A DNA stretch of 64,000 bases from a bacterium. Its GTDB lineage: Bacteria > Electryoneota > RPQS01. Under the pieces are notes generated by a model, which had not been told where the DNA came from, searched no databases, and saw only the letters and a program-made list of their open reading frames with translations. This document shows positions 5,735 to 46,750 of the stretch, one piece after another. The stretch lies in assembly GCA_016703065.1 (NCBI GenBank), contig JADJCU010000003.1:457045-521044 (forward strand), read 5' to 3'. The position numbers and the translations under genes were made by a program. Every line of letters starts with the position of its first letter. Position 1 is the stretch's first letter.

Positions 5735-8219
5735 ATGAAGAACAAGCAGAACTTCGGACGACGCCGGCGTCTTCCCATGTGGTTGATCGCTGGAGTAGTC
5801 GTAGTCAGTGCAGCGTTTTTGGCGGTCGGTCCGTCGTTATTGGCCTCTCCGTCGGCTCCAGTTGCGCAGAGCGCACCGGTTCTGGCACCGGCTCATGAGC
5901 ATGGCGGCGGAGGCGGCCATGGCGAGGCGATTCAATTGCCGTTCGGTCCGGATGCATGGCTGCCGCTATACATCGTGCTGGGCGGCGCAATTCTGGCTCT
6001 TTGCTTTGGTTATTATTGGTCGCGCAAGACCGACAAGGAAAGTCCGGGCAGCGAGCGCATGCAGAGCGTAGGCAGGGCGATCCAGGAAGGCGCATTTGCG
6101 TATCTTGCGCGCCAAGTGCGCACGATGATTCCGCTTGTGATTCTGATTACGATCGGTCTGTTCTTCCTCTACAAGTCGCAGTATCAATCGATACTGCCGG
6201 AAGAGGCAACGAAGTTGGGTATCGGCGTGGCGCTGGCGTTCCTGTTGGGTGTGACGGCTTCCTATTTGGCCGGATACGTTGGCATGGGCGTGGCGGTAAA
6301 AGCAAATATGCGTGTCGCGCATGCGGCGCTGACGAGCTTCAAGCGTTCGCTTGAGATCGCGTTCACAGCGGGTGCTGTGTCTTCAGGAAAACGCGATGTT
6401 CGTGCTGGTGGGCTTCGGCTTTGGTGGATCGCTGGCAGCGTTGTTCATGCGTGTCGGCGGCGGTATTTTCACCAAGGCAGCTGACGTTGGCGCGGACTTA
6501 GTGGGCAAGGTTGAAGCGGGAATTCCCGAAGACGATCCGCGTAATGCGGCGACGATAGCGGATAACGTGGGTGATAACGTCGGCGACTGCGCGGGTATGG
6601 CGGCTGACGTGTTTGAATCGTACGAAGTGACGCTGGTGGCCGCGATTATTCTTGCGGCGGCTGTGGGCGGCACCTTAGCCGCGAACGGATTCGGCGGTTT
6701 GATGACAGCGGGGTCGTTCACATCGGTCTTTACTTTGAAGCTGGTTATTTACGCGCTGCTCGTGCGCGCAGTCGGTGTGGTCGCATCGATTATCGGGATC
6801 ATGGCCGTTAAGGGCAAAGATGATCCGAATATGAATCCGATGGACCCGATCAACCGCGGCGCTACAGTTTCGATCGTAGCGGCGTCGCTCGGTTTTCTCG
6901 GAGTTGCGTATTGGGTATTCGGTTCGGGTTTACCGGCGGTACCTGCTGGTGCGGACCGAGGTCTGGCCGATATCGTTGGAGACTTTTGGTTCTACGCGTT
7001 CCTTGCGACGTTCTTCGGCATCGTGCTGACGTACGTGATCGGGAAGTTGACGGAGTACTTCACTGCGGCCGAGAAGAAACCGGTGACGGAAATTGCGACG
7101 GCAGCGAAGACCGGTCCGGCGACATTGATTCTGTCGGGTTTGGCGGAAGGTCTGGAATCGTCGGTGTGGTCGGCGGTTTCAATTGCGGCGACGATTTACG
7201 GCGCCTACGCGCTGTTCCACGATCCGGCGATGGCGGCTTATGCGATAGCCTTGGCAGGTCTGGGCCTGTTGGCGACGACGGGTTACGTGCTGGCAGAAGA
7301 TACGTTCGGTCCGATTTCGGACAACGCGAACGGGGTATTTGAAATGTCCGGCGCTTTGATAAATGCAGACGGATCAAAGAACCACGCGGCGCATAACATC
7401 GTGGCACGTTTGGATATGGTTGGCAACACGACGAAAGCGTTGACGAAGGGGTTTGCGATAGCGACGGCGGTAATCGCGGCGGTGGCGCTCTACCGGTCTT
7501 ACATCGACACGGTTGCGGTGAAGGATCCGGATATTCTTACGAAGGGTATTCAGGTAAACCTGCCGGAGATCTTCATTGGTCTGTTGATCGGCGGCGCGGT
7601 GCCGTTCCTGTTTTCAAGTTTTGCGATTCGGGCGGTCTCGCGCGCGGCGGTGCTTCTCGTTGAAGAAGTGCGCCGTCAATTCCGTGAGATTCCCGGAATC
7701 ATGGAGTACAGGGGTGTGGGCGAAAAGGGCAAGCCGGATTACGCGCGCTGCGTGGAGATTTCGACTGCCGCGGCACAGAAGGAACTTCTGGGACCTGGCC
7801 TGTTGGCGATTTTCGCACCGGTGTTGTGCGGCTTCTGGCTTGGACCGTACGCGTTGGGTGGATTCTCGCCGGTTGTATCCTGACGGGACAGTTGATGGCA
7901 GTGTTCATGTCGAACGCGGGCGGCGTGGGACAATGCCAAGAAGAAGATTGAAGACGGCTACTTGGGCGGCAAGGGTACGGAAGCGCACAAGGCCGGTGTG
8001 ATCGGTGATACGGTTGGTGATCCGCTGAAGGATACGGCAGGTCCGGCGTTGAACCCGATGATCAAGGTGATGAATCTTGTATCGATCTTGATTGCCCCAA
8101 GCACGGTCGTGATGTACGGGACGGGAAGCGGAATCGCGGTGGTCGTGGTTTCGGTGGCTGTTCTGGCTGGCGCGATCATGTTCTCGAAGCGCGGCGGGTT
8201 GGCAGTAGACGCGAAATAA
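5735..8219 (+). pseudogene. hppA: Membrane-integral H+/Na+-translocating pyrophosphatase, reading frame disrupted
   Basis: Three ORF pieces in different frames (5735-6484, 6351-7883, 7962-8219). Diagnostic motifs are GGGIFTKAADVGADLVGKVEAGIPEDDPRNAATIADNVGDNVGDCAGMAADVFESY and [22 protein letters not shown]. Frame breaks lie near 6385, 7865 and 7925. About one TM helix seems to be missing between AGAVS and VGFGFGGSL. Confidence 0.85.
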
Positions 8220-10743: not shown

Positions 10744-10766
10744 ATTTGACGTGGCGGATCCAGCGA

Positions 10767-12275
10767 CTACGCAGTTGCTTTGACGCGATCTTCCTGAGTC
10801 ATGGCCGCGAGCTTGGCAATTTCATCTACGGGCAGGCCGAGACCTTTGGCCACGCGTTCGCCGTAGTCCTTGTCTACTTTATAGAAGAGCGCAGTTTGGC
10901 GCTTCTGCAAACGGAGCTGTGCATTTTTGAGATGGGCGACGATATTGGAGACCAGGTTGGCGCGATCGGTGTCGGTCATGACTTCACGATACAACGCAGC
11001 GGGCTGTACGAAGTCATCATCTGTGAGGTCGAAGCTGAATCGGTCGATTACGCCGGTGAGCGGAACGGGCGGCTCAGCATAGGACGCATCCGGAGCGGGT
11101 CCGCTGAAACTGTTTGGCCAGTAGTTCGGTCCGCCTGCACCGTTGTCATCAGTCCGCATGGCTCCATCGCGATGGTAGCTGTGCTCGCCGCTGACGCGGG
11201 GCGCATTGACGGGAATCAGGTGATAGTTGCCGCCCAAGCGATGGCGATGCGTGTCGTGGTAGCTGAAGAGACGGCCTTGCAGCATCTTGTCGGGCGACGG
11301 AGCGATGCCGGGAACGACCGTGCCGGGTGAAAACGCCGCCTGCTCGGTGTCGGCGAAGTAGTTCTTCGGGTTGCGATTCAGGACCATTCTTCCAACAGGA
11401 ATAAGCGGGGCGTCCTTATGCGGCCAGACTTTGGTGATGTCAAAAGAGTTGAAGCGGTATTTCTCAACCTGCTCAGGAGTCATGATCTGGACATAGACTT
11501 TCCAAGCCGGGGAATTGCCATCTTTGATTGAATTATAGAGATCGCGCGTTGCGAAATCCGGATCATCACCCGCGAGTTTTCCGGCCTCGTCGCGGGTGAA
11601 GGTCTTCGATCCCTGCTCGGTTTTGAAGTGAATCTTGACCCAGACGTATTCGTTTTTCTCATTGTACCACATGAATGTGTGGCCGCTGTATCCGTTCATG
11701 TTGCGGTAGCCATTGGGCGTACCGCGATCGGAGAAGAGCACCGTAACCTGATGAATGGACTCCGGCGTGAGGGACAGGAAATCCCAGAACATATCCGGGT
11801 CTTTCAGATTGGTGGCCGGATTGCGCTTTTGCGTGTGGATGAAGTCGGGGAACTTCAGCGGGTCGCGCACGAAGAACACCGGCGTGTTGTTGCCGACCAG
11901 GTCATAGTTGCCTTCTTCGGTATAGAATTTCACCGCGAAACCGCGCGGATCGCGCTCGGTGTCAGCTGAACCTTTCTCGCCGCCGACGGTAGAGAATCGC
12001 GCGAAAACTTCCGTGCGCTTGCCGACTTCGGAGAGGAATTTTGCGCGCGTGTATTTCGTCACATCGTGCGTCACTTCAAAGTAGCCCCATGCGCCGGCAC
12101 CTTTGGCATGTACGACGCGCTCGGGGATACGCTCGCGGTCGAAGTGGGCAAGTTTGTCGAACAGGTGAATGTCCTGCATCAGGGCAGGGCCATTCTTGCC
12201 TGCAGTCATAGTATTCAGATCATTGGGCACCGGAGTGCCCTGACTTGTGGTCAATTTATTGTTGGAATCGGACAT
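10767..12275 (-). CDS. katA: Monofunctional heme catalase (small-subunit type)
   Basis: 502 aa with [61 protein letters not shown] and [14 protein letters not shown] (proximal Tyr region). Confidence 0.95.
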
Positions 12276-12322
12276 TGTTCTTTCCTCGGTGAATGGAATA
12301 TAGACGATTTGTTATGGTTTGG

Positions 12323-12760
12323 TTAGGTCTTCCGGGCACAGGCCGCACAGATGCCGCGAAGTTCGACGTGTGACTGGATCACCGTGCCGAAGTTGCTGAC
12401 TTCCTGCGGGACGGGCAGGCGGTTAAATTCGTCATAGAAGAAATCTTCGGCGCGACCGCACTCGGTACAGACGAAATGATGATGCGGCGCGAGGTTGGCG
12501 TCGAAGCGCTGGCGCTCGTGCACGGGTCCCATGGTCGTGATGAGGCCGGCCTCTTTCAGAGCAGCGAGCGTGCGGTAGACGGTATCCAGAGAGATGGTCG
12601 GAACGCGAGTTTTCACGCGCTCGTAGACGCTTGCAGCATCGGGGTGGTCAGTGCGCGCCGCCACATCCATGAAGACCTCCATGCGTTGGTGCGTCAGTTT
12701 GAGTCCCGAGTCGCGGAGTTTCTTGAGCATGGATTCAAGCGGCGGAGTGCGATCGTCCAT
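12323..12760 (-). CDS. perR: Fur-family transcriptional regulator, PerR-like
   Basis: 145 aa with a winged-helix N-terminus, HHHFVCTECG and CAACARK CxxC pairs. Directly upstream of katA on the same strand. Confidence 0.8.
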   Translation of the reverse strand: MDDRTPPLESMLKKLRDSGLKLTHQRMEVFMDVAARTDHPDAASVYERVKTRVPTISLDTVYRTLAALKEAGLITTMGPVHERQRFDANLAPHHHFVCTECGRAEDFFYDEFNRLPVPQEVSNFGTVIQSHVELRGICAACARKT

Positions 12761-12803: not shown

Positions 12804-13042
12804 TATACATCGAACTGAGATAAGATGCAACTTCCCTAAGTTCTCATATTTTCTGATCTAAATTAAAAACAAATAATATATTAAGAATCGCGATCAGGCG
12901 AGAGGCCGCCTTTGGGGAATTAGTTCATGTCAGCGACTAACGGGTCAGCGACACTTGGCCTGACTTGCCGGAGTTTGTACCGGAGCGTCGCGCAACTCGT
13001 GCTTGACTTAAAGCGAGCATAGTCTTATCTTCACGTTCCTCT

Positions 13043-13118
13043 GGCGCGTTCGTCTAGGGGTCTAGGACGCTGGCCTCTCACGCCGGTAACACGGGTTCGA
13101 ATCCCGTACGCGCTACCA
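13043..13118 (+). tRNA. tRNA-Glu (anticodon CUC), CCA encoded
   Basis: Manual cloverleaf: acceptor GGCGCGT/ACGCGCT (G1-U72 wobble), D arm GTCT/GGAC, anticodon stem CTGGC/GCCGG with loop CTCTCAC, and T arm ACGGG-TTCGAAT-CCCGT. 76 nt. Closely resembles canonical bacterial tRNA-Glu. Confidence 0.9.
13104..13116 (+). repeat. attL-like core (tRNA 3' end) CCGTACGCGCTAC
   Basis: Identical 13-mer recurs at 59379-59391. Confidence 0.6.
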
Positions 13119-14689
13119 TGCGCAACAATGTTGCGAACTTGATCGTCAGAACCTCCACCCAGTCCGGTGGAGGTTTTTATTTTTACGTTACTTATCAATT
13201 CAAATTGAATCAGGATGCGATCATCTTTTTGCTTGGTCAGCCGCACTTCCTTCACAAGCACCCGTATCGCCTTCCTACGGTCTTCAGGAGACATTCCTAG
13301 CCACAATGTCCAAAAGTACTGGTAAGAGTCCCGCAAGTCGTCTAGGTTGCTTGAAGGCTGCTTCAATGCCTCTATCGTGACATCCATATCTTGGATTCGT
13401 TGATCCATGCCCTGAATTGCACTGTTGACATCGCGAATCCGGCCAAAGATATTGTCCCGAACATCGTTAGAGGTCGGACTTTCGAGTGCAACCATCAAAT
13501 TTTCAAGTTTGCGCCGTTCTTCAGCGACGTTTCGAACCACTTGGTCACGCTGTTCCTTCAACGCGTTAACTTCTTCATCGCGATTCCCACTAGACTTGTC
13601 CAGAACTGATTTCAATAGTGTTTGATTCACTGACAATAAACGGAGCAGTGCCACACCAATTGCTTCAACATCAACACTACTGACCTGCTTCAATGGGCAT
13701 ACCGATGACGTACGTTTCAATGCATTTGGCATCGATAATAGGTGTGTGCCTTGCCATTCTTGTGTGCCCTGTACGGCGTCATTACTGCATTGCAATGCCC
13801 ACATCGAATGAACGATGAAAACAATGCCTCGTTAGGCAGTGTTTTGTTGAAGTAGTGGTTGACTCCGCGTGTTCTCAGCAATGCTTTCCACCCTCTGGAA
13901 CGTCGATACATCTATTATCGCAGTGTGAACACCGGGAACGAACTTCTTAGCATCAATCGGGTCACGAAATTTCCCAATATAAGCTGGGTTTTGAAGAATC
14001 CGTAGAATTCCTTGTGCTGACCACGGATTGCTCTTTCGTGACCGCAGTCCTTCGCGATTGAATACTGCCGTGATTTCATAGCTGGATTTCCCACCAAGGT
14101 ATTCATCGAAGATTCGCTTGACTACAGTCGCTTCTTGGTCGTCAACACAGCCTTCCGTTTTCACTCTTGTATCCAAACGGAGTAGGCCCACCACGCCACT
14201 CACCACGTGCGATTTTTGCACGCATCCCTTCGGTTGTACGTTTTCGGGTCATCTCGCGCTCAAACTGTGCAAAGGCAAGCAATATGTTTCGCATTAACTC
14301 ACCTTCCGGCCCCTTGGTCCCAAAGATACCTTGATCTACAGGGTAGAATTCGATCCCAAGATCAACCAGCGTCTGATTCGTATTCAGAAAATCAACGATG
14401 CTGCGGCTGAAGCGGTCCACTTTCGTCACCACGATCAACTCGAATTTCCTTCCTTCGCATCTGCAAACAGTCGTTGTAGGCTGGGTCTTTCCATTGTGCC
14501 ACCGCTTGCGACATCTTTATAGATTTCGACAATGTCATGGCTTTCAAACTTACAATACTCTCGGCATCGAATCTCTTGGGTATCTAAGCTTCCCCCTTCC
14601 TCCCTATCCTGTTGATCCGTACTGACGCGGCAGTAGATTGCGACCCTGCGATTCTTTCGTTCTTCTGATAGCTTATTGCGCTGCTTCAT
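13119..14689 (-). pseudogene. Large serine recombinase (resolvase/invertase N-terminus, recombinase domain, zinc ribbon, coiled coil), fragmented
   Basis: Five consecutive ORF pieces (14435-14689, 14142-14438, 13832-14221, 13717-13911, 13031-13804). Motifs: VAIYCRVSTDQQ (catalytic Ser), VTKVDRFSRS, GGPTPFGYK, CGHCNAVM...YYRC. The break at about 14445 is an A-run indel. The last piece runs antisense through the tRNA, so the true 3' end is uncertain. Confidence 0.85.
13150..13185 (+). terminator. Rho-independent terminator immediately after tRNA-Glu
   Basis: 10-bp stem AACCTCCACC/GGTGGAGGTT with loop CAGTCC, followed by TTTATTTTT. Confidence 0.75.
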
Positions 14690-14875
14690 GACTTTCTCGC
14701 TTCGTGCGGGACGGATAACGGCTTCTTAATGCTCACTAATTTAGTGGTTCGGGAAGACTACTGCAAGGGCTTCCGCTTGTTTCTTATGCCGTGATTCTGG
14801 CATAAGAATTTACAGAAGCAAGAGCTCTGCATTGTGCGGGGCTCTTTTCGTTTACAACCCCCTAAGGAGTCTCCC

Positions 14876-15088
14876 ATGAAAGTCAAAGTCCTCTGCCTTG
14901 GCCGCTCGGCTAAGGAAATCAACGTCAGTGACGGCACCACCGTCGAACAGGCCATCGCGGAAGCTGGGTTCCCGAAGGATTCCAGTTACACCCGGCACCT
15001 GAACGGCAGTCCGTGTTTCGATACGGATATCTTGGTCGAAGGCGCGGTGCTCACCCTGGTGCCACAAGTGAAAGGCGGGGGTTGTTAG
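14876..15088 (+). CDS. Ubiquitin-like beta-grasp protein (ThiS/MoaD-like), C-terminus ...VKGGGC
   Basis: ATG at 14876, 6 nt after AAGGAG. 70 aa with a ThiS-like pattern (MKVKVL...DGTTVEQAI...ILVEGAVLTLVPQVKGG). First gene of the Ubl/E2/JAB/E1 cassette. Confidence 0.75.
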   Translation: MKVKVLCLGRSAKEINVSDGTTVEQAIAEAGFPKDSSYTRHLNGSPCFDTDILVEGAVLTLVPQVKGGGC

Positions 15089-15166
15089 ACAGCGTTCCTG
15101 ACTGTCTACCAATTCAGGGGAGGGCTGCGGTTCAAGTAACCGTGGCCCTCTCTTTCCTCCGGTGGA

Positions 15167-16273
15167 ATGCATATGATTGAACAAATCAGAACCCTGATCA
15201 GGTTCTACGAACAGAAGTGGCATGTGCCGATTACCTTGATGAATCAAGACATGGACCTGCATTGTTGGCACGAAGTTGGAATTGCTGTCCGCGTTAATGC
15301 GGATCCTGATTCAGCATTCTCCAAGAACATCGCAGGTGATCCACTTGTGATGGAATCAGTGCTTGTAGGCAAGGTCAACGCAAGTTGGCTTGTGTTGTAC
15401 GGTGCGCCACATATAGATGTAACTTCAAACATCCTTGACGCACATCTTCCGCGTATGTGCCGCGCGTTTAGAAAACGTCAAAGGGAAACCTTGATTGACA
15501 CCATGCAGACTGTTGCTGCCGAACGAAAGCATGAACTCGCAGTTTCGCTGCGTGATGACAAGTATGAACTCGAACGACTGTGTATGCAAGTGATGACACT
15601 GTCGCGGAAGATTGAAGGTGACCGCGAGATACTGAATATGTTCAGTAGAGCGCCAGAATTCATTAAGGGCAAGGCGACGCGGACATTCGTGGAGATGATG
15701 AAGCTGGTGCCAAGTTGCTATTCACATATCAACGTCGTCGACAAGTCTGTGCTCGCCGAAACGTATCCGATTACATTGGAACACGATGGACGAAGTTACG
15801 ACTTTGATCCGTATGTGGTTGAAGTAGATCTTGATAAGGGCAAGGTGTTAATAAGCGGCGGCACCGAATGCAACGGATACATTCATCCACACTGCACCGA
15901 TGATCCGAATAACATCTGTTGGGGAAATGTCGGTCATCTTGTTTCACGATTGACAGGCGAACTTGATTTGCATGGATTGCTTCAGCTGGTGCATCAGTTT
16001 CTGCACTCCTACAACAACAGCGACCCATTCCAGAAGATCGAGAAGTGGGATCCTGACTTCGTTGAGGACAACGAAGACGATGACCCGTACTGTTCCTGGT
16101 GCGATGACTACGGACACGACATTTCAGATTGTGAATCCTGTTGGTGGTGTGAACACTGTCAGCAATACGATGATCACGATGCCGATGAATGCCCTAATCA
16201 CCCAAAAGATGAAGACGAAGAAGAGGAGGATGCCGATGCAGAACTTGCAGAGGACACAGCGTCAGCCGGTTGA
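15167..16273 (+). CDS. E2 (UBC)-like protein with a long N-terminal extension and a Cys/His-rich, poly-acidic C-terminal tail
   Basis: 368 aa. YIHPHCTDDPNNICWGNVGHL resembles the E2 HPN...Cys catalytic loop. The tail is DPYCSWCDDYGHDISDCESCWWCEHCQQYDDHDADECPNH followed by DEDEEEEDADAE. Sits between the Ubl and JAB genes. Confidence 0.55.
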   Translation: MHMIEQIRTLIRFYEQKWHVPITLMNQDMDLHCWHEVGIAVRVNADPDSAFSKNIAGDPLVMESVLVGKVNASWLVLYGAPHIDVTSNILDAHLPRMCRAFRKRQRETLIDTMQTVAAERKHELAVSLRDDKYELERLCMQVMTLSRKIEGDREILNMFSRAPEFIKGKATRTFVEMMKLVPSCYSHINVVDKSVLAETYPITLEHDGRSYDFDPYVVEVDLDKGKVLISGGTECNGYIHPHCTDDPNNICWGNVGHLVSRLTGELDLHGLLQLVHQFLHSYNNSDPFQKIEKWDPDFVEDNEDDDPYCSWCDDYGHDISDCESCWWCEHCQQYDDHDADECPNHPKDEDEEEEDADAELAEDTASAG

Positions 16274-16952
16274 TGCTGGCGTGAAGATTCAAGTTGAGGC
16301 TGAGGCCATGCAGAAGCTTTGGTTGTGGACTGATTTTGCCAAGGGTGAAGTCAGTTGCCTTGGCCTTGTCGATGAAGTAGTTAGCTCGGAAACTGGCCGG
16401 ACAACGGCATTAATTGTAACTGACTTCTTTCTCGTGAAACAGCAGTGCACCTATGAAGAAACGGACATGGACGTAGCTGATATTGCGCGGCTGATTGCTG
16501 AACTTGAATCAAAAGGAATTGACTCGCGTAAGCTTCGTTGTTGGGCTCACTCGCATGGCAGCATGTCAGTCTTCTGGAGTGGTCAAGATGAATCATGTAT
16601 CAGCGGGCTCGCCAACAACGAATGGTTGCTTTCCCTCGTTGTCAACAAGCGTCGTGATACACAGATGCGTCTGGATCAGTTCCATCCCAGTCACATGTAC
16701 ATTCCTGATGTTCAGTGGGAGGTGAAATATCCACTGGTGGACGGTCTCGCAGTAGCATGCTTTGATGAATTCAAAACCAAAGTGCGCGAGACAACGTTTC
16801 TAAAGCGAACTCGCGAGGATCAATTGGTCAGGCGCGACATGATTCTCGATGAACTTGACGAAGCCAGCGCACGCGGCGCTTTGACCATGGAGGAACTTGA
16901 TGACGAACTGAATTGGCTGGGGATTGAACGTGACGACTTTGAACAATATTAG
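16236..16952 (+). CDS. JAB/MPN+ (JAMM) metallopeptidase, putative Ubl-processing or deconjugating enzyme
   Basis: HSHGSMSVFWSGQD equals the JAMM motif H-x-H-x7-S-x2-D. Start reassigned to ATG 16236 (GGAGGA 6 nt upstream), which overlaps the E2-like gene by 38 nt. Confidence 0.8.
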   Translation: MQNLQRTQRQPVDAGVKIQVEAEAMQKLWLWTDFAKGEVSCLGLVDEVVSSETGRTTALIVTDFFLVKQQCTYEETDMDVADIARLIAELESKGIDSRKLRCWAHSHGSMSVFWSGQDESCISGLANNEWLLSLVVNKRRDTQMRLDQFHPSHMYIPDVQWEVKYPLVDGLAVACFDEFKTKVRETTFLKRTREDQLVRRDMILDELDEASARGALTMEELDDELNWLGIERDDFEQY

Positions 16953-16960
16953 GAGACCGA

Positions 16961-17617
16961 ATGAACGACATGCGATTTCTAAGACAGCAAGATGTTGTCG
17001 ATGCAGACAAGTTAGCCAACTTGTTTGTAACGTTGATCGGTCTCGGGAGCATCGGTTCGGTCTCGGGATTGTATCTCGCCAAGATGGGCGTCGGCAAGCT
17101 GACCTGTTTCGATGCCGATTTTGTGGACATCCACAATGTCAGCAATCAGGCGTATGGGATGTCTGATGTAGGTCTGATGAAGGCAGATGCATTTGCAAAT
17201 CTGGTTGAACTACAGACAGGCGTGCTGCCAAACACCGTTGGTCTGCAATACGATGGCCGTGAACTATCAGGTGTCGTCATCAGCGCAGTTGACAGCATGG
17301 CAAGTCGCTTGGCAATCTGGAAGGGAATTCGAGAGCAGGCTGCGGTGCAGCTCTACATCGATTCGCGCATGGCGCTGAACACTATGGATGTGCACATCGT
17401 GCGGCCACAAGTTCGAACTGAGAGAATCAGCTACGCGCAGACACTTGTTTCAGACGATCAGACGTTGCAAGAACCATGCACCGCACGGACGATTTGTTAC
17501 TCGCCTTTGATGGCTGGGAGTGTAATCTGTTCTCTCGTGAAGCGGTTTATTTGCGACGAACAGGTGCCATCGCGTGTCATTCTCGATCTGGCAACGATGA
17601 CTTTGCTGGCAAGTTAG
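16961..17617 (+). CDS. ThiF/MoeB-family E1-like adenylyltransferase (short form)
   Basis: 218 aa with LIGLGSIGS (GxGxxG), CFDADFVDIHNVSNQ and ISAVDSMASR. AGGAG RBS upstream. Confidence 0.8.
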   Translation: MNDMRFLRQQDVVDADKLANLFVTLIGLGSIGSVSGLYLAKMGVGKLTCFDADFVDIHNVSNQAYGMSDVGLMKADAFANLVELQTGVLPNTVGLQYDGRELSGVVISAVDSMASRLAIWKGIREQAAVQLYIDSRMALNTMDVHIVRPQVRTERISYAQTLVSDDQTLQEPCTARTICYSPLMAGSVICSLVKRFICDEQVPSRVILDLATMTLLAS

Positions 17618-17625
17618 CCAGCACT

Positions 17626-17648
17626 AGATAGGGGCAGCCCTATCTTTT
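17626..17648 (+). terminator. Terminator closing the Ubl cassette
   Basis: Stem AGATAGGG/CCCTATCT with loop GCAG, followed by TTT. Confidence 0.6.
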
Positions 17649-17825: not shown

Positions 17826-19183
17826 ATGTCATCATTACACTCAAAGTGGAATAAACAAGCTATGCTGGTCCGTGCCGTCCTGTTGCCAACTCTAACTGTG
17901 CTTTGCGCGATGAGTTCATTTGCACAAGGGGTTGACAGCGATAGCCTGCTTGCCAGCTATGTTGCTGAATCGTGGAAGACTCATCCCAACATCGATCGCA
18001 TGCGAGCCATGATTGCTGTGGAAAGTAGCCGTGCTACCATGAACAACTCGTGGATGAATCCGGAATTGCGCGCCGGACTGATGAATATTCCAGAAAGCTT
18101 TGATGCCCATGCGGATCCGATGACTATGTTTCAGATTGGCGCAATGCAACAGATTCCTTTCCGGGAAAACTTAAAGCTGCAAGGCGAGCAGGTGAAGCTC
18201 GGGTCAACGCCGCAACGGCCACTCTTGACCAAGAGCGATTTCGGATGGCAGCGATGGTCGCGATGACTTATTACGACTTAGCCGCCGCGCTGGAAACGCG
18301 CCAAACGCTGGAACAAGGACTCGTGCTGACAAAACAGGCTGTTGACGCTGCAACATCGTTGCTTTCCACAGGCAAGGGATCACAGGCAGAAGTGTTGCGG
18401 GCAGGCCTTGAGCAAGAAGAGTGGAATCTCAAATTGCTTGCGAACGCATCGGAGACCGACCAAAAACGCGCAGCGCTAGCCTATGCGATCGGACGGACCG
18501 AGGTCAGTACACTTACAGACCCTGTTCTTCCGAGTAGCTTGCCACCAATGATTGACCTTGACGCAGGACTTGCCTTGGCTGAAAATGCATTAACTCCGCA
18601 AGTCAAAATCGCACTGGCGCAATCACAAGCTGCCGAATTTGAACTTCGAAGAGCCAAGCTTGAGTATTGGCCCGACATCAAGTTAGAGCTTGCCTATGGA
18701 ATAAGAGGGGCGTTGAACGGTACGGGAGCAGATCCCCATACAGGCGAACCGATTTCACAGTCACTCAAGCAAGATAACATGGTCACTTTTGAGGTGTCCG
18801 CTCCTGTCCCGCTGTTTTCCCGCGGCAATCAACAAGCAAAGATAAACGAAGCTCGTGCTATGAATCGTAGCCGACAAAGTGAGCAAATAGAATCAGTGCT
18901 CAACCTGCAGCAGGAATTGCGGTTCGTTCACGCGGAATTCACGGAAACGATTAATCAGTCCGAAGTGAATAGCCGAGTTTTGCAACAAGGAGAGGCAGCC
19001 TGGCGTTCTGCGCTTGTGGACTATCAAGCCGGGATTTATCCCTACATGGGACTCTCAGAAGCGCGCATGATTTTGGTCATGGCTCAGATTGAATCTGTTA
19101 TGTATCGCGCAAAAGCCTGGGCAACGTATCAACAGTGGCAAAGCCTGCTTGGAAATTACACCGTTGACGCAACGGAACAATAG
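17826..19183 (+). pseudogene. cusC: TolC/CusC-family outer-membrane efflux protein, one frameshift
   Basis: Pieces 17826-18266 and 18245-19183. The join at about 18165 (CCTTTCCGGG) restores ...QQIPFPGKLKAARRAGEARVNAA...; a C-run indel. Confidence 0.8.
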
Positions 19184-20751: not shown

Positions 20752-23700
20752 ATGCAGGAAAACTTAACAGTTCTCCAGCGCATCATCCGTTTCTCTGCTG
20801 AGAATCGCTGGCTTGTCATTGCGGCGACGCTTGTGGCAATCGTGATTGCTGCCTGGACCATGCAGAATATTCCATTGGACGCGTTGCCCGACTTGTCTGA
20901 CACACAAGTAATCGTTTATTCACGTTGGGACCGGAGCCCGGATATCATTGAGGATCAGGTCACATACCCGATCGTCAGTTCGCTGCTTGGTGCGCCGAAG
21001 GTCAAAGCCATCCGTGGATACTCGGATTTCGGGTACAGCTTTGTCTATGTTATCTTCGAAGACGGAACAGACATTTACTGGGCGCGAACACGGGTACTGG
21101 AGTATCTTTCCAAGATCACAGCACAGCTGCCAGCCGGTGTAAAAACGGAGTTAGGGCCGGATGCGACTAGTCTCGGCTGGGTCTTTCAATACGCGCTCAT
21201 TGACCGCTCGGGCAAGAACACAAGCGACGAGTTACGCAGCTACCAGGACTGGTATCTTCGTTATGCGATCTCGTCTGTTCCCGGCGTTGCAGAAGTTGCC
21301 GCAGTTGGGGGTCAGGTCAGACAGTATCAGATTACCGTTGATCCCAATGCCTTGGCTGCTTACAACCTACCGCTTGAAGCTGTCATACAAGCGGTACGCA
21401 AGGGCAACAATGATGTCGGCGGAAGGTTAGTTGAAATTTCAGGCCGTGAATACATGGTCCGAGGACGTGGGTATGTGGAGTCCATCGCGGATCTGGAACA
21501 GCTCGTTCTAATGTCCGAAGGCGGGACGCCGGTTACAGTCAAAGATGTCGCGACGGTTGCACTCGGTCCGGAGTTGCGACGGGGTATTACTGATTACAAT
21601 GGTGAAGGCGACGTTGTAGGCGGAATTGTCGTCATGCGGCAGGGCGAGAACGCGCTAAATGTTATCGAACGAATCAAGGCTAAGATTGAAGAGCTAAAGC
21701 CTTCGCTTCCCGAAGGTGTCGAAATCGTCACGACCTATGATCGTTCAGAATTGATCGGACGCGCAATCGATACAGTCAAAGGCAAGTTGATCGAAGAGCT
21801 CATCATTGTCTCGATTATCATCCTGATCTTCCTTTGGCATATCCCATCTGCTGTTGTTCCGATTGTCACAATTCCGATTAGTGTGATCTTGGCATTTATT
21901 CCCATGTACATGATGGGTTTGACTGCGAACATTATGTCTCTGGCAGGAATTGCGATTTCAGTTGGTGTATTGGTTGACGGGGCGATTGTTGAAGTCGAGA
22001 ACGCGTACAACAAGATTTACCATTGGCAAGCCGGAGGTATGAAAGGGGACTTCCACAAAGTGCGACTCGACGCGTTGATGGAAGTGGGGCCGACTGTCTT
22101 CTTTTCACTATTAGTAATTGCGGTCGCGTTCATCCCGGTGTTTACGTTGGTAGATCAGGAAGGCCGGTTGTTCAAGCCACTCGCCTTTTCCAAGAACATT
22201 GCGATGGCGATTGCAGCGGTGCTGGCCATCACACTTGATCCGGCGCTGCGAATGATGTTTGCACGGATTGAGCCATTCAAGTTTCGACCCAGATTTCTGG
22301 CCTGGACTGCGACGAAGTTTGCGGTTGGGACTTACTACTCAGAGGAAAAGCACCCTATCAGCAGGTTCTTGCATAGGATTTATGAGCCTCCCTGTCGCTT
22401 TGTTCTTCGCCACCCCAAAGCAACGATCTTTGCGAGTTTTCTGTTAGTCGCGTTGACCATCCCAGTCTATCTGCAGCTTGGTCATGAATTCATGCCGCCC
22501 TTGCGTGAAGGCAGCTTGCTTTACATGCCTTCTGCAGTTCAGCCCGGAATGTCAGTCGCTGAAGCGCAGAAGGCATTGCAGGTGCAGGATAAGCTGCTCA
22601 TGACGTTCCCTGAAGTTGATCGCGTATTTGGAAAAGCCGGTCGTGCCGAAACATCTACCGATCCGGCTCCATTCACGATGATGGAAACAACAATCTTGTT
22701 GAAACCCGAATCTGAATGGCGGGAAAACCCACGCTGGTATTCAAATTGGTCGCCAGAATGGCTGAAATCAATCCTTCGAACCGTATGGCGTGACCGGATT
22801 ACTGAGGCCAAACTTGTCAGCGAAATGGACGAACGTCTGCAACTTCCCGGGATTAGCAACGCATGGACAATGCCGATCAAGGCTCGCCTTGACATGTTAT
22901 CGACCGGAATTCGCACACCCGTAGGCATCAAGATATCTGGAAGTGATCTCACTGTAGTGCAGCAAATCGCAGTCGAGATGGAATCGGCGTTGCAGGGAGT
23001 TCCGGATACACGAAGTGTGTATGCAGAGCGCGTTGCAGGGGGGTATTTTCTTGACTTTGATTTGCGCCGCGACCAACTTGCCCGCTATGGGCTAACTGTT
23101 GATGACGCAAACATGATGGTGATGACTGCGGTGGGCGGAGATAATCAGACGACGACCGTAGAAGGTCGGGCACGGTATGGTGTCAATGTGCGTTATGCCC
23201 GTGACTACCGCGACAATCTCGACGCGCTTCAGCGCGTGCTCATATCGCTGCCGAATGGTCAAGGGCAAATTCCGATGTCTGAAATCGCAGACATAAAGCT
23301 CGTCGAAGGGCCGGCAATGATCCGCGATGAGAATGGCTTACTTGCGGGTTACGTCTATGTCGACTTTGATCCGTCTAAGGTTGATGTGGGTGGTTATGTT
23401 GAGCATGCCAAGCAAGCCGTAGCAGCATTAGTAAAGATTCCCACAGGTTATTCCGTGGTATGGAGTGGTTAGTACGAAAATATGCTGCGAGTTAAGGAAC
23501 GCCTCAAGCTCATTATTCCGTTGACGCTGATTTTGATCTTCGGACTTTTGTACATGAACACGAGGTCGAGCTTAAAGTCGCTTGTGGTTATGCTGGCAGT
23601 CCCGTTCTCTGCCATCGGTGCTGTTTGGCTGATGTACTTGCTCGGTTACAACGTCTCTATCGCTGCGTGGGTAGGCATGATCGCATTGCTTGGACTCGAT

Positions 23701-24078
23701 GCTGAGACGGGCGTTTTCATGTTGTTATTCCTTGATCTTTCGCACAACGAAGCAAAGGCGCGAGGGCAATTGCGAACCACGGGAGACTTAGTTGAAGCGA
23801 TTGTACACGGAGCCGTCAAGCGTGTTCGTCCGAAAGCCATGACCGTATGCGCCGCTTTTATTGGACTACTCCCCATTATGTGGTCTACCGGGGCAGGTTC
23901 AGACCTGATGAAACGTGTGGCAGCGCCAATGGTAGGAGGATTGGTTACCTCTTTTGCCTTGGAATTGCTGGTCTATCCAGCGATCTACTATCTTTGGAAA
24001 CGCAAATCAGTCGTTCCCGGCCCGGAATCGCCTGCTGACAACGGCGAGAATTCCGCGACAACACTTGCTCCATGCTAA
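20752..24078 (+). pseudogene. cusA: CusA/CzcA-family heavy-metal RND transporter interrupted by an in-frame TAG
   Basis: 906-aa and 198-aa ORFs are in the same frame, separated by TAG at 23470-23472 in the context WSG*YENMLRVKERLK, where the family has WSGQ(F/Y)E. Confidence 0.9.
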
Positions 24079-33054: not shown

Positions 33055-33073
33055 TGGCATAAGAACTTGTCCA
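33051..33073 (+). repeat. 23-bp box TTTCTGGCATAAGAACTTGTCCA, copy A
   Basis: Identical to 33581-33603. Followed about 50 nt later by a short ORF (33102-33179) and a terminator (33217-33249). Confidence 0.9.
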
Positions 33074-33580: not shown

Positions 33581-33603
33581 TTTCTGGCATAAGAACTTGT
33601 CCA
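33581..33603 (+). repeat. 23-bp box TTTCTGGCATAAGAACTTGTCCA, copy B
   Basis: Identical to 33051-33073. Followed by a short ORF (33629-33715) and a terminator (33721-33748: AGGCCAGC/GCTGGCCT then a T run). Confidence 0.9.
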
Positions 33604-34222
33604 AGGACATTCACAAAGGGATTAACTGATGAAGAATAGACCAATCAGGTTTCTGGAGCGGCTACTAGACGGAGCAACATGGGCGCTGAAAGCGCTCACG
33701 CGGCATCGCCGTTAACATTTAGGCCAGCCGTCAGCTGGCCTTTCTTTTCGCTCTAAAAAGACAAAAGAGCACATCACGTGCTTCGACAATGATGGGGGAA
33801 TGTCATTTGGGCAACCCCCAATGTCCCTCTCGCATATGCTTATCAGCATATAACAAAACTCGCGATAATCAAGCAATTAGCAGTCCACCAAGACAAGATA
33901 AGATAACGCAAATGGGGTAGGTGATTAACCTACCCCGTCGAGTTTTAGGGAGTTAGCATATCAAGACAAGACAGACAAGAATAACTAATGGTAAAAATAA
34001 AATAGTATATAGTATACGATAATAATAACTTGTATATATAAGGGAATGCAGGCCAGTGCGTCTGTCTGTCTTCTTTGTCTTTGGTACATCGCGGCGTGAA
34101 AATTTCCCAAAAAATTTCTTGAAGTCGGTTTCGGTACCGGGTTCTATGGGAACCTATGGCTCCCGTTGTGGGAGATCCTGACGGGCTTAGATTGAATCCC
34201 CGGCTTCTGCAACAGCATGCTT

Positions 34223-34677: not shown

Positions 34678-37635
34678 CTATTCGTCACCTGCATCCGAAT
34701 CATCCGGTTTTCCGCCATCAAAATCGAAGGTGTAGATTGTTGTTTTGGTGCGGTCTTTTTCGGTCTTAAGCGAGAAGTTCGCAGTCAAAACAACACCATC
34801 CGCGGCTTCGCCTACAGCCAGCGTCCTTGCGGTATCAGCGATACGCATCGCCAACTGTCGCGCATCTTTGTATTCATACTTCAGATTCTTACGTTTGGCG
34901 ACTGTAGAAAACGTGTGGTGTAGTTGTGATGCAGTACCTGTCACTATTCTTCCAACAACATTCACTTCGTAGCCCCAATTCCGAATCGCATCGTCTCTAA
35001 ACAGCGGGCTTATCTTATAGTCTTCAAGAATTGCTTCTAAACAATCAACAATTTGATTAGATTCAATAGCCACTTCCTTGCCCTGCTGGTTTTGCACTTT
35101 CACCCAATCTGACAAGATGGCTTCAACTTCAAGAGTCGGATCTATCAAAGGCAGAAGTTCTTCCAGAATTAACGCCATCAATGAAATAAAGCTATTTGAA
35201 CGGTCTTTGGCGTGTCCAGGATGGTTCTTTTCCAAGTAGTCTTGCCACCATTCTAAACGGCCACTGGCGATCTTTGCCAGCACACGACTGACTAACAGCA
35301 TATGTGCGGAAACCATCTGTGGTCTGGCAGCAGCTATGCGTGTATAGACACGTTCAGACCAATGGGGCGATGGGTGCTTCCACCTGTCGAATCTGATTGC
35401 TAACGTACGGTTGATGTGTTCGGTCTTCCCCAGGTTTTCGATGCCGTTGGTCGCTACCAAACAATGAACCTTTTCCAATACGGTGTCACGGTCTGTGCCA
35501 ATGACCCGCTTTTCCTTCGTGATACCAGTGGCAGCGGTCAATACGAAGTCACCAAGGCCTTGATTGAAGTTGGCTACTTCGACGTTGTCCAGTAATACTA
35601 GCGGATTTCGAGCACCATCAGTGTAGTTAGCCGCTTCCGTTGCTTTCTTAAGGTGATTGTCACCGTAAATGAACTGTGATATTAATTCCATACCACGGGT
35701 CTTACCCGAAGATGAAACGCCATCAAAGCGCAAGTGCGGCAGTGTCTTGACATAACCCATCCATGGGTAAGTCATGGCCCAACATCCGACAAGAAGTTGG
35801 TTGTTTCTTGTCGTCGCTAGACTTTGAAGGACCAGGGAATCGAATTCAAGTAGTGCATCGCGGTACCCAGTGCCGTTCAATTGCACAAGCGCAACGGGAG
35901 ACATCTTTGGCGCAGGTGCCAACAGAATCGAATCCGCGTTCGACCCGTTTTCAACCAGTGCTGCACCCGACGGGTCAATCCGCAGAATGCGTTCGACATC
36001 AGAATTCAGATGAACATGAATCGTGTTTCTATTACCGTCCGTGTGAATCCAACTAAAGGAATTCAGATATGTGCCCTGTGTGTCCGTTTCGGCTTTCAGT
36101 GCTGCCCAGATCTTGCGACTTTCGATTCCTTCGTGCGTTAATCCAGTGATTCGCCAGACAAATGTATGAAAAGGTTGATTGTTGCCCAATTCATACACGG
36201 TTCCTTCCCAAATCCAATATCCCCGGTGTTCGCGGTCACGATACACTAAGCCACCATTGCTGATAAACCAGCGATAAATAATTTGGCCACGATCTTCCGG
36301 CGAAGCACCAAGTCCTACCGCGCCTTTCAGTACGTCTTTTAAGTCACGGCCTTCCAGATCTGCATCACTGATCGCATCACAGGCCATGCGTTCCAGCAGT
36401 TCTTTCCCAAGCTGAAGTACTTGGGATAACTTCGTTATCCATTCCGCTGCCCGTTGGTATGCAAGCAAGTGAAAGTCTTCAATGAAGTGAACGCGCAACG
36501 CGTCCATTCTTTCCTTGCCTTTCACTGACTTCAGTTTACCTAGGACCCCATCCAGGTCCACGTGGTAAGCCCATCCTGCTGGTGATGCTGGCCAGTCAGG
36601 TATTTCTCCATCCCAGCCTAAATCACGTATGGTAGCGTAGCGTTGTGGTCCACCGTTCTGAAGCGCGTTTGCTATCTTTGAATCGACAACGCCTTCGTCG
36701 TACTTGTTCTTGCGCCAATCACGTTTCAGGATGTCATGTATGGCTTCCCGACCACCTTGGAACCTCGCGAGGTTCGTTATCAAAGCGTATTTAAGCGGTT
36801 CGCGAATACGAACATCAGGATCATTAATGTGGTCAGACATCCACTTCACAAAGGGACAGTGAGCCAAGACTTTCAATAAGCCTGATTTTGGGCGCAGTTT
36901 GCCATCCCACTTGTAAGGTTTCGCTGCCGAACCCTTTACGTCATCAGCATCATCATCCGGCATATCACTGATGTCAATGCTATAGTAGTTTCCCGTAACA
37001 TGAACGTCCAGTAAGAATGGTGTGTTCAATTCACGTGTACTGGGAAAGAACTTACGCCCTGGGTTCGTGCACGACTTGTCGGCCTGCGGATAGAGTTCCA
37101 TCATCTTGCTGTAGACCTTGCGCGCCTCACTGCCCGAAGTGTAGTACAAACCACTGGGTTCGAAGGGTAGTATCACTCGAAAGCGATCCTCGGCGGGCAT
37201 TCCATCTTCGGAATGCCCGTGTGTTCTGCTGGTGTGCAGGATATAGTTGAAATCTTGAAAAGCATCCTGTGCTTCACCTATGGTGAACCCATGATCGAAA
37301 TCCAAGGTGACGCCTGTCATGCCGGCATAGGCATCGTTGTTACATCCAGTAGTCCATGTGTTTGTAGAATACAAGCGGGTCTGAAACAAACTTGCCAGTT
37401 CGTCAGAATCAGGGCTCGCGACAAAGGTATGTTGCGTAAAGTCAAGGACCTTTTTTGCTTCTTCTTTCGTCTCTACGGTTCTTGTCGAAACGGATAACGT
37501 AACTTCAAATCTATCGTCATTAGTAGAATCATTAATATAGTCTGCATGCACGCCGTTAATTTGCGTGGTATGTATTGGCAATTCTATTGCCTGTAAATCT
37601 ATTCGCATTCGCGTCGACCTTTCTACGTATATCAA
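34678..37635 (-). CDS. Primase-polymerase (AEP-like) fused to a P-loop (SF3/D5-like) helicase; replication protein, module 1
   Basis: 985 aa. N-terminal GVTLDFDHG ... ILHTSRTHG ... FRVILPF (AEP-like motifs). Walker A DGVSSSGKT and Walker B LVLLDNVE. Paralogous to 39103-41973. Confidence 0.7.
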   Translation of the reverse strand: MIYVERSTRMRIDLQAIELPIHTTQINGVHADYINDSTNDDRFEVTLSVSTRTVETKEEAKKVLDFTQHTFVASPDSDELASLFQTRLYSTNTWTTGCNNDAYAGMTGVTLDFDHGFTIGEAQDAFQDFNYILHTSRTHGHSEDGMPAEDRFRVILPFEPSGLYYTSGSEARKVYSKMMELYPQADKSCTNPGRKFFPSTRELNTPFLLDVHVTGNYYSIDISDMPDDDADDVKGSAAKPYKWDGKLRPKSGLLKVLAHCPFVKWMSDHINDPDVRIREPLKYALITNLARFQGGREAIHDILKRDWRKNKYDEGVVDSKIANALQNGGPQRYATIRDLGWDGEIPDWPASPAGWAYHVDLDGVLGKLKSVKGKERMDALRVHFIEDFHLLAYQRAAEWITKLSQVLQLGKELLERMACDAISDADLEGRDLKDVLKGAVGLGASPEDRGQIIYRWFISNGGLVYRDREHRGYWIWEGTVYELGNNQPFHTFVWRITGLTHEGIESRKIWAALKAETDTQGTYLNSFSWIHTDGNRNTIHVHLNSDVERILRIDPSGAALVENGSNADSILLAPAPKMSPVALVQLNGTGYRDALLEFDSLVLQSLATTRNNQLLVGCWAMTYPWMGYVKTLPHLRFDGVSSSGKTRGMELISQFIYGDNHLKKATEAANYTDGARNPLVLLDNVEVANFNQGLGDFVLTAATGITKEKRVIGTDRDTVLEKVHCLVATNGIENLGKTEHINRTLAIRFDRWKHPSPHWSERVYTRIAAARPQMVSAHMLLVSRVLAKIASGRLEWWQDYLEKNHPGHAKDRSNSFISLMALILEELLPLIDPTLEVEAILSDWVKVQNQQGKEVAIESNQIVDCLEAILEDYKISPLFRDDAIRNWGYEVNVVGRIVTGTASQLHHTFSTVAKRKNLKYEYKDARQLAMRIADTARTLAVGEAADGVVLTANFSLKTEKDRTKTTIYTFDFDGGKPDDSDAGDE

Positions 37636-37846: not shown

Positions 37847-38120
37847 TCTTTATTCCTTTCTTAATTATACCGGCACTAACTAGTGCCAGCCTTGCATGTC
37901 CATCGGCTCTCGATGCCGAAGTGCTATCAGCGACAAAAGCATTCATGACACTCATAACTATATGGTCACGATGTTTCACCTTGGCTTCTATAAAGCCATT
38001 CATTACCAACATGTGACTGAATCTCTTGTGGTCGCGTGCGTCAATCAATAGTCTTCGCCATGAAATCCAAATAAAGTGCTTGTTGTTTCCAAAGAAGCAC
38101 TGCACGCCCTTCTTCGACAT
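37836..38120 (-). CDS. Hypothetical protein; 5' end abuts the G/C-only tract
   Basis: 94-aa ORF with no recognisable motif. Its start codon lies directly next to 38128-38533, so the 5' end is unreliable. Confidence 0.3.
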   Translation of the reverse strand: MSKKGVQCFFGNNKHFIWISWRRLLIDARDHKRFSHMLVMNGFIEAKVKHRDHIVMSVMNAFVADSTSASRADGHARLALVSAGIIKKGIKNAD

Positions 38121-38127
38121 ATCTTCT

Positions 38128-38533
<406 letters not shown>

Positions 38534-46373: not shown

Positions 46374-46750
46374 GTCCATGGGGTTGCAGGTCAGATCTTC
46401 ATTTACTTATCGACTACTACAACCTACCATTCACCACGCGGAGGCGAGGTATTCGCTATGTCATTGATTGCATACTTCATACCATTGGTCCACAAGGTTG
46501 ACTGGCACTCAACATATCCATGCTCGCCTCTATGCAGGTTGGCACATAGGCGCAACGCTTACAAAAGCCGCACAATCATTGACGGCTGAAGTGCAACATG
46601 TATTCCCAGCTATAGTGCATGTTAACGGGCCATCAAGCTCCTGTCTGGCTTTAATCTCGCGTGCCGGGCGCTGCTTTGGACATATCCTGAGGCGCATTAA
46701 CGTGTAAACTGTAAGCCTTCAGACCTTTTGGCACAAGATGCGCTATTGTA

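Follow-up and report, generated by a model that had tools for sequence, protein, structure and literature searches.

In a 64,000-nt stretch of contig JADJCU010000003.1 from a bacterium of the Electryoneota lineage (the window, meaning the whole stretch that was analysed), four co-directional genes form a compact cassette whose predicted products would attach and remove a ubiquitin-like modifier (Ubl). The first open reading frame (ORF1, 14876–15088, +) encodes a 70-aa Ubl ending in PQVKGGGC and has the ribosome-binding site (RBS) AAGGAG 7 nt upstream; ORF2 (15167–16273, +) encodes a 368-aa protein resembling ubiquitin-conjugating enzymes (E2), with the motif NGYIHPH-x8-C-WGN; ORF3 (16236–16952, +) encodes a 238-aa candidate peptidase of the JAB/MPN+ type containing HSHGSMSVFWSGQD; and ORF4 (16961–17617, +) encodes a 218-aa minimal activating enzyme (E1) containing LIGLGSIGS, CFDADFVDIHNVSNQ and ISAVDSMASR. 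A gap of 78 nt separates the Ubl gene from ORF2, ORF2 and ORF3 overlap by 38 nt, and ORF3 and the E1 gene lie 8 nt apart. The probable start of ORF2 is the second ATG at 15173, where its homologues begin, giving 366 aa; the 238-aa start of ORF3 is the start of database entries 100% and 94% identical to it, and the database protein IPG71_09245, from a 546-kb contig of a metagenome-assembled genome (MAG), is 100% identical to the ORF3 of the window.

The original prediction, made from the DNA letters of the window, had described four intact, tightly packed or overlapping genes in the order of a Bil operon, and coordinates, RBS, synteny and substitution rates all agree with it. In a comparison set of 20 loci drawn from genomes and metagenomes, the order Ubl-E2-JAB-E1 was kept, as in the window, in every related locus that neither a contig end nor frameshifts interrupt, and the ratio of nonsynonymous to synonymous substitution rates (dN/dS) was 0.05–0.18 for all four genes (pairwise against ten loci, wherever dS was estimable). 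All four genes are under purifying selection, and the constant order across loci together with these low ratios indicates that the four reading frames are more than chance. Identity of the locus L003 to the window was 79% for the Ubl, 52% for E1, 49% for JAB and 36% for E2, and no other gene of the cassette is as well conserved as that of the Ubl. Several genomes hold 2–4 cassette copies. In the locus L008, the E1 (11750–12418) is 47% identical to that of the window, versus 76–84% for its Ubl, E2 and JAB, which suggests on sequence identity that the E1 gene was swapped between cassette lineages.

Homologues of ORF2 fell into 46 clusters and those of ORF3 numbered 139 proteins, all of them unannotated and from uncultured bacteria, with source labels that include Calditrichaeota, KSB1 and plain 'bacterium'. 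Far more distant E2-like proteins (the P0185 family, ∼22% identical to ORF2) sit, in the sample of distant members that was looked at, in equivalent four-gene cassettes with a 68–70-aa ThiS/SAMP2-like gene, a ∼220-aa JAB-type gene (HSH...S..D) and a 214–223-aa ThiF gene, and because such divergent E2s occur in the same cassette, the four-gene unit is a conserved entity of a broad family. The close family was not found in IMG/VR, tblastn found no relatives among the PLSDB plasmids (72,556 records) or the INPHARED phages, and viral contigs searched with single distant proteins yielded no match. Literature searches found no description of the cassette family, and Pfam and PADLOC likewise hold no model of the ORF2 family; as judged by profile searches, the cassette is built from protein families that lack a Pfam, NCBIfam, PADLOC or PHROG model.

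ORF1 had been taken for a beta-grasp protein, and its family profile bears this out, with SAMP2 as the best PDB match over the full length (5LDA_B, E 1.9e-6) and MoaD also matched, alongside weak, sub-threshold Pfam matches to ThiS (E 0.0015) and SAMP2 and an NCBIfam ThiS match at 4e-5. Across 16 loci the C-terminus is an invariant LVPxVKGG with 0–2 variable residues behind it, the residues following VKGG being none, A, I, C, GC, GW, GQ, DR or LV. ORF1 is thus predicted to be the precursor (VKGG-GC) of a SAMP2/ThiS-type beta-grasp modifier, and since its tail extends beyond Gly-Gly, peptidase processing would be needed. That the Ubl has a single beta-grasp domain had been counted as atypical, which does not hold, as 78% of the Ubls in type II Bil are built that way (PMC11601603).

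The identity of ORF2 had to be drawn from its superfamily. As a single sequence it matched nothing in Pfam, NCBIfam, PADLOC, the PDB sequences or PHROG, and a Pfam scan of all 34 ORF2 family members detected no E2 family and gave weak zinc-knuckle matches. Its AlphaFold2 model (predicted local distance difference test score, pLDDT, 80) shows an alpha/beta domain at residues 1–78, a helical hairpin at 83–178, a beta-meander at 185–231, then a loop with HPH...C and two helices within 253–280; the putative UBC core spans ∼160–295, followed by CCHC knuckles (C309–C342) and an acidic tail. The N-terminal extension that had been described as helical therefore exists, but is made up of an alpha/beta domain plus a helical hairpin. 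Within the core lie H240-P-H242 and, at the catalytic position, C251.

A search with the core (residues 160–300) against 1.84 billion cluster representatives matched 1,630 representatives at E ≤ 1e-3 and 236 at E ≤ 1e-10 (50% clustering). Among 61 diverse superfamily members the invariant columns were solely H240, P241, H242, C251 and G253, and in none of the 61 did Pfam place a domain over the core. While the core profile of the narrow family reached an hhalign probability of 2.5% against E2s, the profile of 42 diverse cores returned almost only E2s from the PDB: named E2 enzymes made up all but four of the 60 best matches, led by UBE2L3 (1.4e-4) and then UBE2L6, UBE2A, UBE2N and UBE2D2/3, with alignments that span helix 1 and the meander and set HPH on HPN and Cys on Cys. 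With hhalign, four canonical E2s were aligned at 93.4% probability (E 2.5e-7) over 119 columns, in which HPH falls on HPN, C251 meets the catalytic Cys and the YNxxxP of ORF2 meets the E2 motif PNPxDP; this comparison is a lead, which the independent PDB profile search corroborates. In BFVD, three significant matches were to uncharacterised phage proteins, and a weak one was to a 'Type II CBASS E2 domain' protein. The profile comparison thus identifies a UBC core, and the secondary structure of the model (helix, meander, loop, helices) agrees with it.

Judged by these profiles, the earlier assignment of ORF2 as E2-type stands, and the protein is predicted to be a true E2 of the UBC fold, in which C251 takes the catalytic position and the two C-terminal UBC helices are absent. 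Its core defines a large superfamily (the 1,630 representatives) that has no Pfam model and that, by sequence, is nearer to eukaryotic E2s than to other solved proteins of the PDB. Where those helices would be, the close family has a tail made up of a zinc knuckle with the invariant pattern C-x2-C-x4-H-x4-C, another Cys/His cluster and an acidic stretch, and more distant members have longer Cys-rich tails. Two other assignments were considered and rejected: a permuted papain-like thiol peptidase, since the His-Cys spacing of 9–11 residues and the profile matches fit an E2, and a RING-like cross-brace for the zinc tail, since the ligand spacing fits two sequential CCHC knuckles (pLDDT of the tail ∼50).

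ORF3 as a single sequence matched nothing in Pfam, NCBIfam, PADLOC or the PDB sequences, and its family profile had no match among the PDB sequences. The AlphaFold2 model (pLDDT 69) gave 138 Foldseek matches in the PDB at E ≤ 1e-3, with CSN5, Rpn11 and BRCC36 at the top, each with probability 1.0. The residues E38, H105, S106, H107, S115 and D118 are invariant in the family, Pfam Prok-JAB was weakly matched by 30 of the 38 members, and the helical, SHOCT-like C-terminal tail is conserved. The JAMM motif noticed earlier is thus found again as part of a complete JAMM signature (E...HxH...S..D), and ORF3 is assigned to the MPN/JAB fold.

For ORF4, the predicted ThiF/MoeB-type adenylation domain was recovered directly, by Pfam ThiF (2.2e-13, residues 13–82, above cut-off) and by a profile search of the PDB that returned UBA5 (3.9e-13), Uba1, MccB, ThiF, Cap2 (7.7e-9) and BubCD (1.3e-4), with all matches confined to the first ∼120 residues; an hhalign alignment with MoeB covered the N-terminal 82 columns only. 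The motifs RQxD, GxGxxGS, DxD, NxxNQ, K, VDsMxxR and DxRMG are invariant even in cassettes of ∼35% identity (R8, G27/G29/G32, D51/D53, N59, N62/Q63, K74, D111 and R116). In all loci the protein has 214–230 aa and one adenylation domain, with no CxxC zinc pairs and no room for an inserted Cys domain. The single invariant Cys is C173, in a PCT(A/E)(R/K) motif; it may be the catalytic Cys of the E1, its position being presumably equivalent to that of the Cys in ThiF, MoeB and UBA5. ORF4 is accordingly classed, on its motifs and profiles, as a putative single-domain adenylating E1 of the ThiF/UBA5 type.

The cassette carries several conserved cis elements. Between the recombinase gene on its left and the Ubl gene lies a 28-bp palindrome, TTCTTATGCC-N8-GGCATAAGAA (14781–14808), with 10-nt arms of 100% complementarity, whose right half faces the Ubl and whose left half faces the serine recombinase. 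Each of the 17 close-family loci has the right half, TGG[CA]ATAAGA, 43–93 nt ahead of the Ubl start codon, and in distant cassettes a (C)ATAAG(A) box is retained about as far upstream. Four copies of the box occur in the window against 0.26 expected, at 14781–14808, 33055–33064 and 33585–33594, and both 33-kb sites share the 22-nt extension TTCTGGCATAAGAACTTGTCCA; elsewhere it was found at L001 2034, L004 3765(-), L005 6004(-) and L003 9685(-), with no copy in the other parts of the fetched loci. Besides the Ubl cassette, the TGGCATAAGA box stands ahead of the excisionase-like genes that lie upstream of the integrase in L004 and L005, a DUF932 gene (L003) and a micro-ORF (L001 and the window), and it may be a dedicated promoter- or operator-like element. 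The micro-ORF itself encodes a conserved 28-aa product, MKNRPIRFLERLLDGATW..KALT..RR (window 33629–33715, +; L001 ∼2079–2165), lies 44–45 nt past the box and is present both in the L001/L002 element and in the island of the window, where another tiny ORF comes after the 33055 copy. The TGGCAT box has a superficial likeness to a -24 element, and a sigma-54 promoter was rejected for it, as the -12 element and the spacing are unconserved and distant cassettes lack the TGG. Genes for sigma-54-interaction AAA+ proteins lie directly upstream of, and divergent from, the cassette of L013 (7155–8690, -) and ∼2.7 kb upstream of that of L004 (5915–6946, -).

RNA-level signals were found on both sides of the Ubl gene. 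A leader stem-loop with a U-run (14820–14846, +), detected by a terminator scan ∼30 nt upstream of the Ubl start, is kept in 11 of 12 loci with compensatory changes in 7 of 9 pairs, and may be attenuator- or terminator-like. Two conserved intergenic hairpins (15086–15108 and 15120–15150, +) separate the Ubl from the E2; behind them come a stretch of pyrimidines and the palindrome CCUCCGGUGG/CCUCCGGAGG, within which the E2 RBS lies. RNAalifold on 14 loci gave compensatory changes in 7 of the 13 predicted pairs of the second hairpin and the RBS palindrome. Rfam had no match in the region. Partial termination at the intergenic hairpins may leave the Ubl in excess over the enzymes. The terminator that had been proposed to close the cassette holds in part: an 8-bp hairpin (17626–17645, 4-nt loop) followed by TTTT is present at 17626–17648 (+), 9 nt past the E1 stop, but it fails the criteria of the terminator scan and is weak.

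As had been noted, the cassette adjoins an island recombinase. The large serine recombinase gene (13031–14689, -) is frame-broken, with Pfam Resolvase and Recombinase matched on fragments, and through at least 4 indels it aligns in three frames to its intact orthologues in L006 and L008 (601–656 aa). The gene for tRNA-Glu(CTC) (13043–13118, +) marks the left boundary of the island and overlaps the 3′-end of the recombinase gene on the opposite strand; 6 kb further upstream there is another tRNA-Glu(CTC) call, which at 91 nt is unusually long (6726–6816, +). A search for att direct repeats of the island found none. The cassette occupies the left edge of a low-GC island (0.47–0.51 versus 0.55–0.59 in the flanks), which continues downstream with split Cus-type copper/silver efflux genes, including TolC-like (17826–19183) and CusA-like (20752–24078) ones, a sigma-54 two-component pair and a copper P-type ATPase, and further on with a primase-like 985-aa ORF, an rve transposase (46743–48206, -) and a type I restriction R subunit (HsdR-like, 51052–53658, +). 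The 985-aa ORF (34678–37635, -) has a Walker-A motif and no Pfam match, and because of its weak similarity (E 3e-9) to the protein of L001 with archaeo-eukaryotic primase (AEP) and DUF5906 domains it is probably the replication protein of the island; a 15-kb copper-resistance block separates it from the cassette. Inside the island, a local GC-rich patch (0.57) contains at 38084–38420 a tandem repeat of short period, dense and degenerate, whose 21 overlapping copies are spaced by 8–15 nt; the repeat overlaps ORFs on both strands.

It had been pointed out that the four genes are intact although many neighbours are frame-broken. The observation is correct, but it is weak evidence for selection: in L012, from another long-read MAG, breaks lie inside the cassette and the integrase, and because of this the frameshifts of the window may be consensus errors or real decay, which are inseparable.

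The same setting recurs across the family. A tyrosine integrase is encoded within a few kb of the cassette in 13 loci and a large serine recombinase in three (the window, L006 and L008); L008 shares its catalase-Fur insertion site with the window, and L004 carries Cus cargo like the window. A typical element is 7–10 kb long: an integrase gene, in some cases joined by one for an excisionase, comes with a few small ORFs and a gene for AEP primase/DUF5906, MCM or PolA as replication protein, and the cassette stands last, next to the chromosomal genes. In L020 little more than an integrase, an MCM and the cassette makes up the element. The 132 neighbouring ORFs that were surveyed include 13 with Phage_integrase as well as others with Resolvase/Recombinase, DUF5906 and MCM. 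Without exception the cassette forms the end module of small integrative elements. Next to it lie DUF932 and PD-(D/E)XK genes in L003 and L020, and one distant cassette, L017, has an ArdC-like gene (ArdcN plus zincin metallopeptidase, 10759–11607, +) 59 nt past its E1.

Among known systems, the nearest solved relative of the Ubl is SAMP2 (SAMP2-JAMM1 structure 5LDA), matched at full length and ending on Gly-Gly, and the SAMP/UbaA/JAMM pathway likewise relies on a JAMM peptidase for processing or deconjugation and on a small E1 of the MoeB/UBA5 kind that has no separate Cys domain; sampylation, however, has no E2, whereas the cassette always has one with a conserved catalytic Cys, and its genes are mobile. 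With the eukaryotic and Caldiarchaeum systems (PMC5654768, PMC3082918) it shares the E2 core H-P-x...Cys...(P/Y)N..P, with best matches to eukaryotic E2s such as UBE2L3, and a JAB that resembles Rpn11 and CSN5 including the C-terminal helices. It differs from them in having HPH instead of HPN, no two C-terminal UBC helices, a minimal E1, zinc knuckles fused to the E2 in place of a separate RING, and a Ubl that is ThiS/SAMP-like in sequence. CBASS Cap2/Cap3 and Bub are likewise bacterial machineries based on E1, E2 and JAB (PMC10097602, PMC11601596), but Cap2 is an E2-E1 fusion that conjugates a CD-NTase with no free Ubl (PMC10097602), while the genes of the cassette are separate, and Bub forms Ser/Tyr oxyesters without a catalytic Cys and uses a DUF6527 protease (PMC11601596), while the E1 and E2 of the cassette keep an invariant Cys. 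PRTRC and the Iyer-Burroughs-Aravind types 6a–6e are mobile-element-borne combinations of Ubl, E1, E2-like and JAB genes as well (PMC1779556). None of types 6a–6e, however, combines separate Ubl, E2, JAB and E1 with an E2 that keeps the upstream His, the type 6d E2s lacking the classical upstream His and the type 6e E2s being inactive (PMC1779556).

A biochemical route from Ubl precursor through JAB trimming, E1 adenylation and an E2 thioester to conjugation without a ligase (E3) is well supported by these homologies. The Ubl would be made as a 70-aa SAMP2-like precursor, its VKGG-GC tail being seen in the sequence. JAB would trim the 0–2-residue tail, exposing Gly-Gly, and would later reverse the conjugates, as the behaviour of Bil and of SAMP/JAMM suggests. 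The 218-aa E1, presumably a homodimer like MoeB/UBA5, would use the motifs seen in it to adenylate the C-terminus of the Ubl, and C173 may form the E1∼Ubl thioester. From there the Ubl would pass to C251 of the E2 core, in line with the homology and with the placement of C251 on the catalytic Cys. No E3 is encoded, and the N-terminal domain, the coiled coil and the CCHC knuckles of the E2 probably pick the target, with nucleic-acid-bound proteins as possible targets. The intergenic hairpins between Ubl and E2 would hold the modifier in excess over the enzymes. Pre-processing of the Ubl and an E3-less conjugation step are also known from Bil and Bub (PMC10557695, PMC11601596, PMC11601603).

Taken as a whole, the region is probably, on its sequence, a self-contained thioester-type Ubl conjugation and deconjugation cassette in the Bil layout, carried as the last cargo module of small integrative elements. 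As for its role, the leading candidate, which we would put somewhat short of an even chance, is a Bil-like conflict function in which proteins of an infecting phage or a rival element are tagged; an antiphage role would be an analogy with Bil, in whose antiphage action a tail protein of the phage is modified with the Ubl, and we infer that conflict or defence cargo is preferable to a part in the life cycle of the element. Several findings weigh against this picture. The cassette is surrounded by integrase and replication genes rather than by known defence genes, and no PADLOC defence family recurs among the 132 neighbouring ORFs; the promoter-like box common to the cassette and the xis/int genes fits element biology at least as well as defence. 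PADLOC-DB v2.0.0, in which the presence of Bil models is unconfirmed, had no match to the Ubl, E2 or JAB at E ≤ 1. The full-length ORF2 model found no significant Foldseek match in the PDB (best E 0.2, Ube2W at rank 18), and the hhalign comparison with canonical E2s is a lead. Finally, a profile of the C-terminal half of the E1 gave no relevant match in the PDB, and the E1 thioester step is putative because this half, with C173, aligns to no solved E1.

What the box and the terminal position could mean for the elements themselves leads to other readings. Tentatively, and as a minority possibility, the cassette may be a Ubl system owned by mobile elements, with an E2/E3 hybrid (UBC core, coiled coil and CCHC) that is co-induced with xis/int. 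Such a hybrid might, though this is doubtful too, tag proteins associated with nucleic acids, be they of the element, its host or a phage (helper or rival), and thereby control excision and replication or bring about phage hijack or interference; and it is conceivable, at similarly low confidence, that the family of ∼1,600 representatives is an unrecognised major branch of prokaryotic ubiquitin-type signalling.

Among the rivals to a conflict function, the one that survives best is a module of the element life cycle, switched on with xis/int, which would tag replication or recombination proteins of the element or the host for excision, replication or maintenance. The cassette is indeed always terminal in elements of 7–10 kb (recombinase; primase, MCM or PolA; cassette), the TGGCATAAGA box stands upstream of the Ubl, the excisionase-like genes, DUF932 and the micro-ORF, with the palindrome in the window, the cassette type stays constant on differing backbones, whereas cargo usually varies, and the zinc knuckles suggest proximity to nucleic acid. 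Yet the recombinases (Tyr or Ser) and the replicases are unrelated between elements and no constant partner protein is evident, the recombinase of the window looks decayed while the cassette is intact, and the shared box may be a mere promoter type. We know of no Ubl system that regulates a bacterial mobile element, and on balance we regard this role as unlikely, though a serious contender.

A less probable reading, to which we give little weight, is an anti-defence or establishment module, in which Ubl conjugation or JAB would neutralise host immunity or rival Ubl defences on entry, much as the leading-region genes of plasmids or of integrative and conjugative elements (ICEs) do. The ArdC-like gene directly past the E1 in L017 and the DUF932 and PD-(D/E)XK genes adjacent in L003 and L020 would fit, but such neighbours occur in a minority of loci, the elements carry no conjugation genes, and the 72,556 plasmid records hold no relatives. 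The E1 and JAB do show a weak NCBIfam likeness to components of PRTRC, which is borne by ICEs and plasmids, but the scores are far below the family cut-offs (PRTRC_ThiF 31.5 versus 144.75 bits; PRTRC_A 13.7 versus 101.8 bits), and PRTRC_B and PRTRC_C of NCBIfam had no match.

We consider it very improbable that the cassette is a true type I or II Bil member too divergent for the hidden Markov models. The likeness is real: separate Ubl, E2, JAB and E1 genes follow the order bilA-bilB-bilC-bilD with identical component types and no E3, the Ubl carries residues past the reactive Gly, implying pre-processing by JAB, and the E2 has a catalytic Cys (PMC10557695, PMC11601603). BilD, however, is a ∼500-aa E1 with IAD, AAD, a mobile CYS domain and a 4-Cys zinc site (PMC10557695), whereas the E1 of the cassette has 218 aa and one adenylation domain, without IAD, CYS domain or zinc site. 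BilB has its catalytic Cys and a conserved downstream His (CEHH) without the classical upstream His (PMC10557695, PMC1779556), whereas the cassette E2 has an upstream His-Pro-x and, across the superfamily, no conserved His after the Cys. Further differences are the ∼160-aa N-terminal alpha/beta and coiled-coil extension and the CCHC knuckles of the E2, the absence of capH/capP regulators upstream, and the seat in small integrative elements; PADLOC was silent on Ubl, E2 and JAB, and for the E1 the best 25 of 32 PADLOC matches were all CBASS 'E1-E2' models. The differences from characterised Bil that had been listed at the outset, namely the short E1 without a CYS domain, the N-terminal extension of the E2 and its Cys/His zinc tail, are thus genuine, and because the tandem IAD/AAD/CYS signature of BilD and the Cys plus downstream-His signature of BilB are absent, the cassette is, by sequence, best placed outside Bil. 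A sulfur carrier, with Ubl and E1 as a thiocarboxylate pathway like ThiS/ThiF, MoaD/MoeB or TtuB/TtuC for cofactor synthesis or tRNA thiolation, is scarcely credible: the Ubl does match ThiS weakly, its PDB matches include MoaD and the best NCBIfam matches of the E1 are the ThiF and MoeB models, but the scores are far below the curated cut-offs (23.8 versus 80 bits; 53 versus 159 bits), Ubl and E1 are invariably linked to JAB and to an E2 with a conserved catalytic Cys, the tail after Gly-Gly requires a peptidase, the setting is a mobile element, and none of the 132 neighbouring ORFs is a ThiG/ThiH, MoaE, rhodanese, TtuA or sulfurtransferase gene.

Research on the ubiquitination-like pathways of bacteria (type II CBASS, Bil, Bub) is still young, and each new family has given new chemistry or targets. 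With a 70-aa Ubl and a 218-aa E1, the cassette is to our knowledge the smallest complete four-gene set described so far, and it would add a new, large E2 family that has no database model and retains the classical His-Pro-x...Cys signature. Its E2, with putative targeting modules in the coiled coil and the zinc knuckles, may have a built-in E3. Should the cassette serve defence, the Bil paradigm would reach new phyla and new kinds of element; should it serve the element that carries it, it would be the first Ubl system with a role in mobile-element biology.

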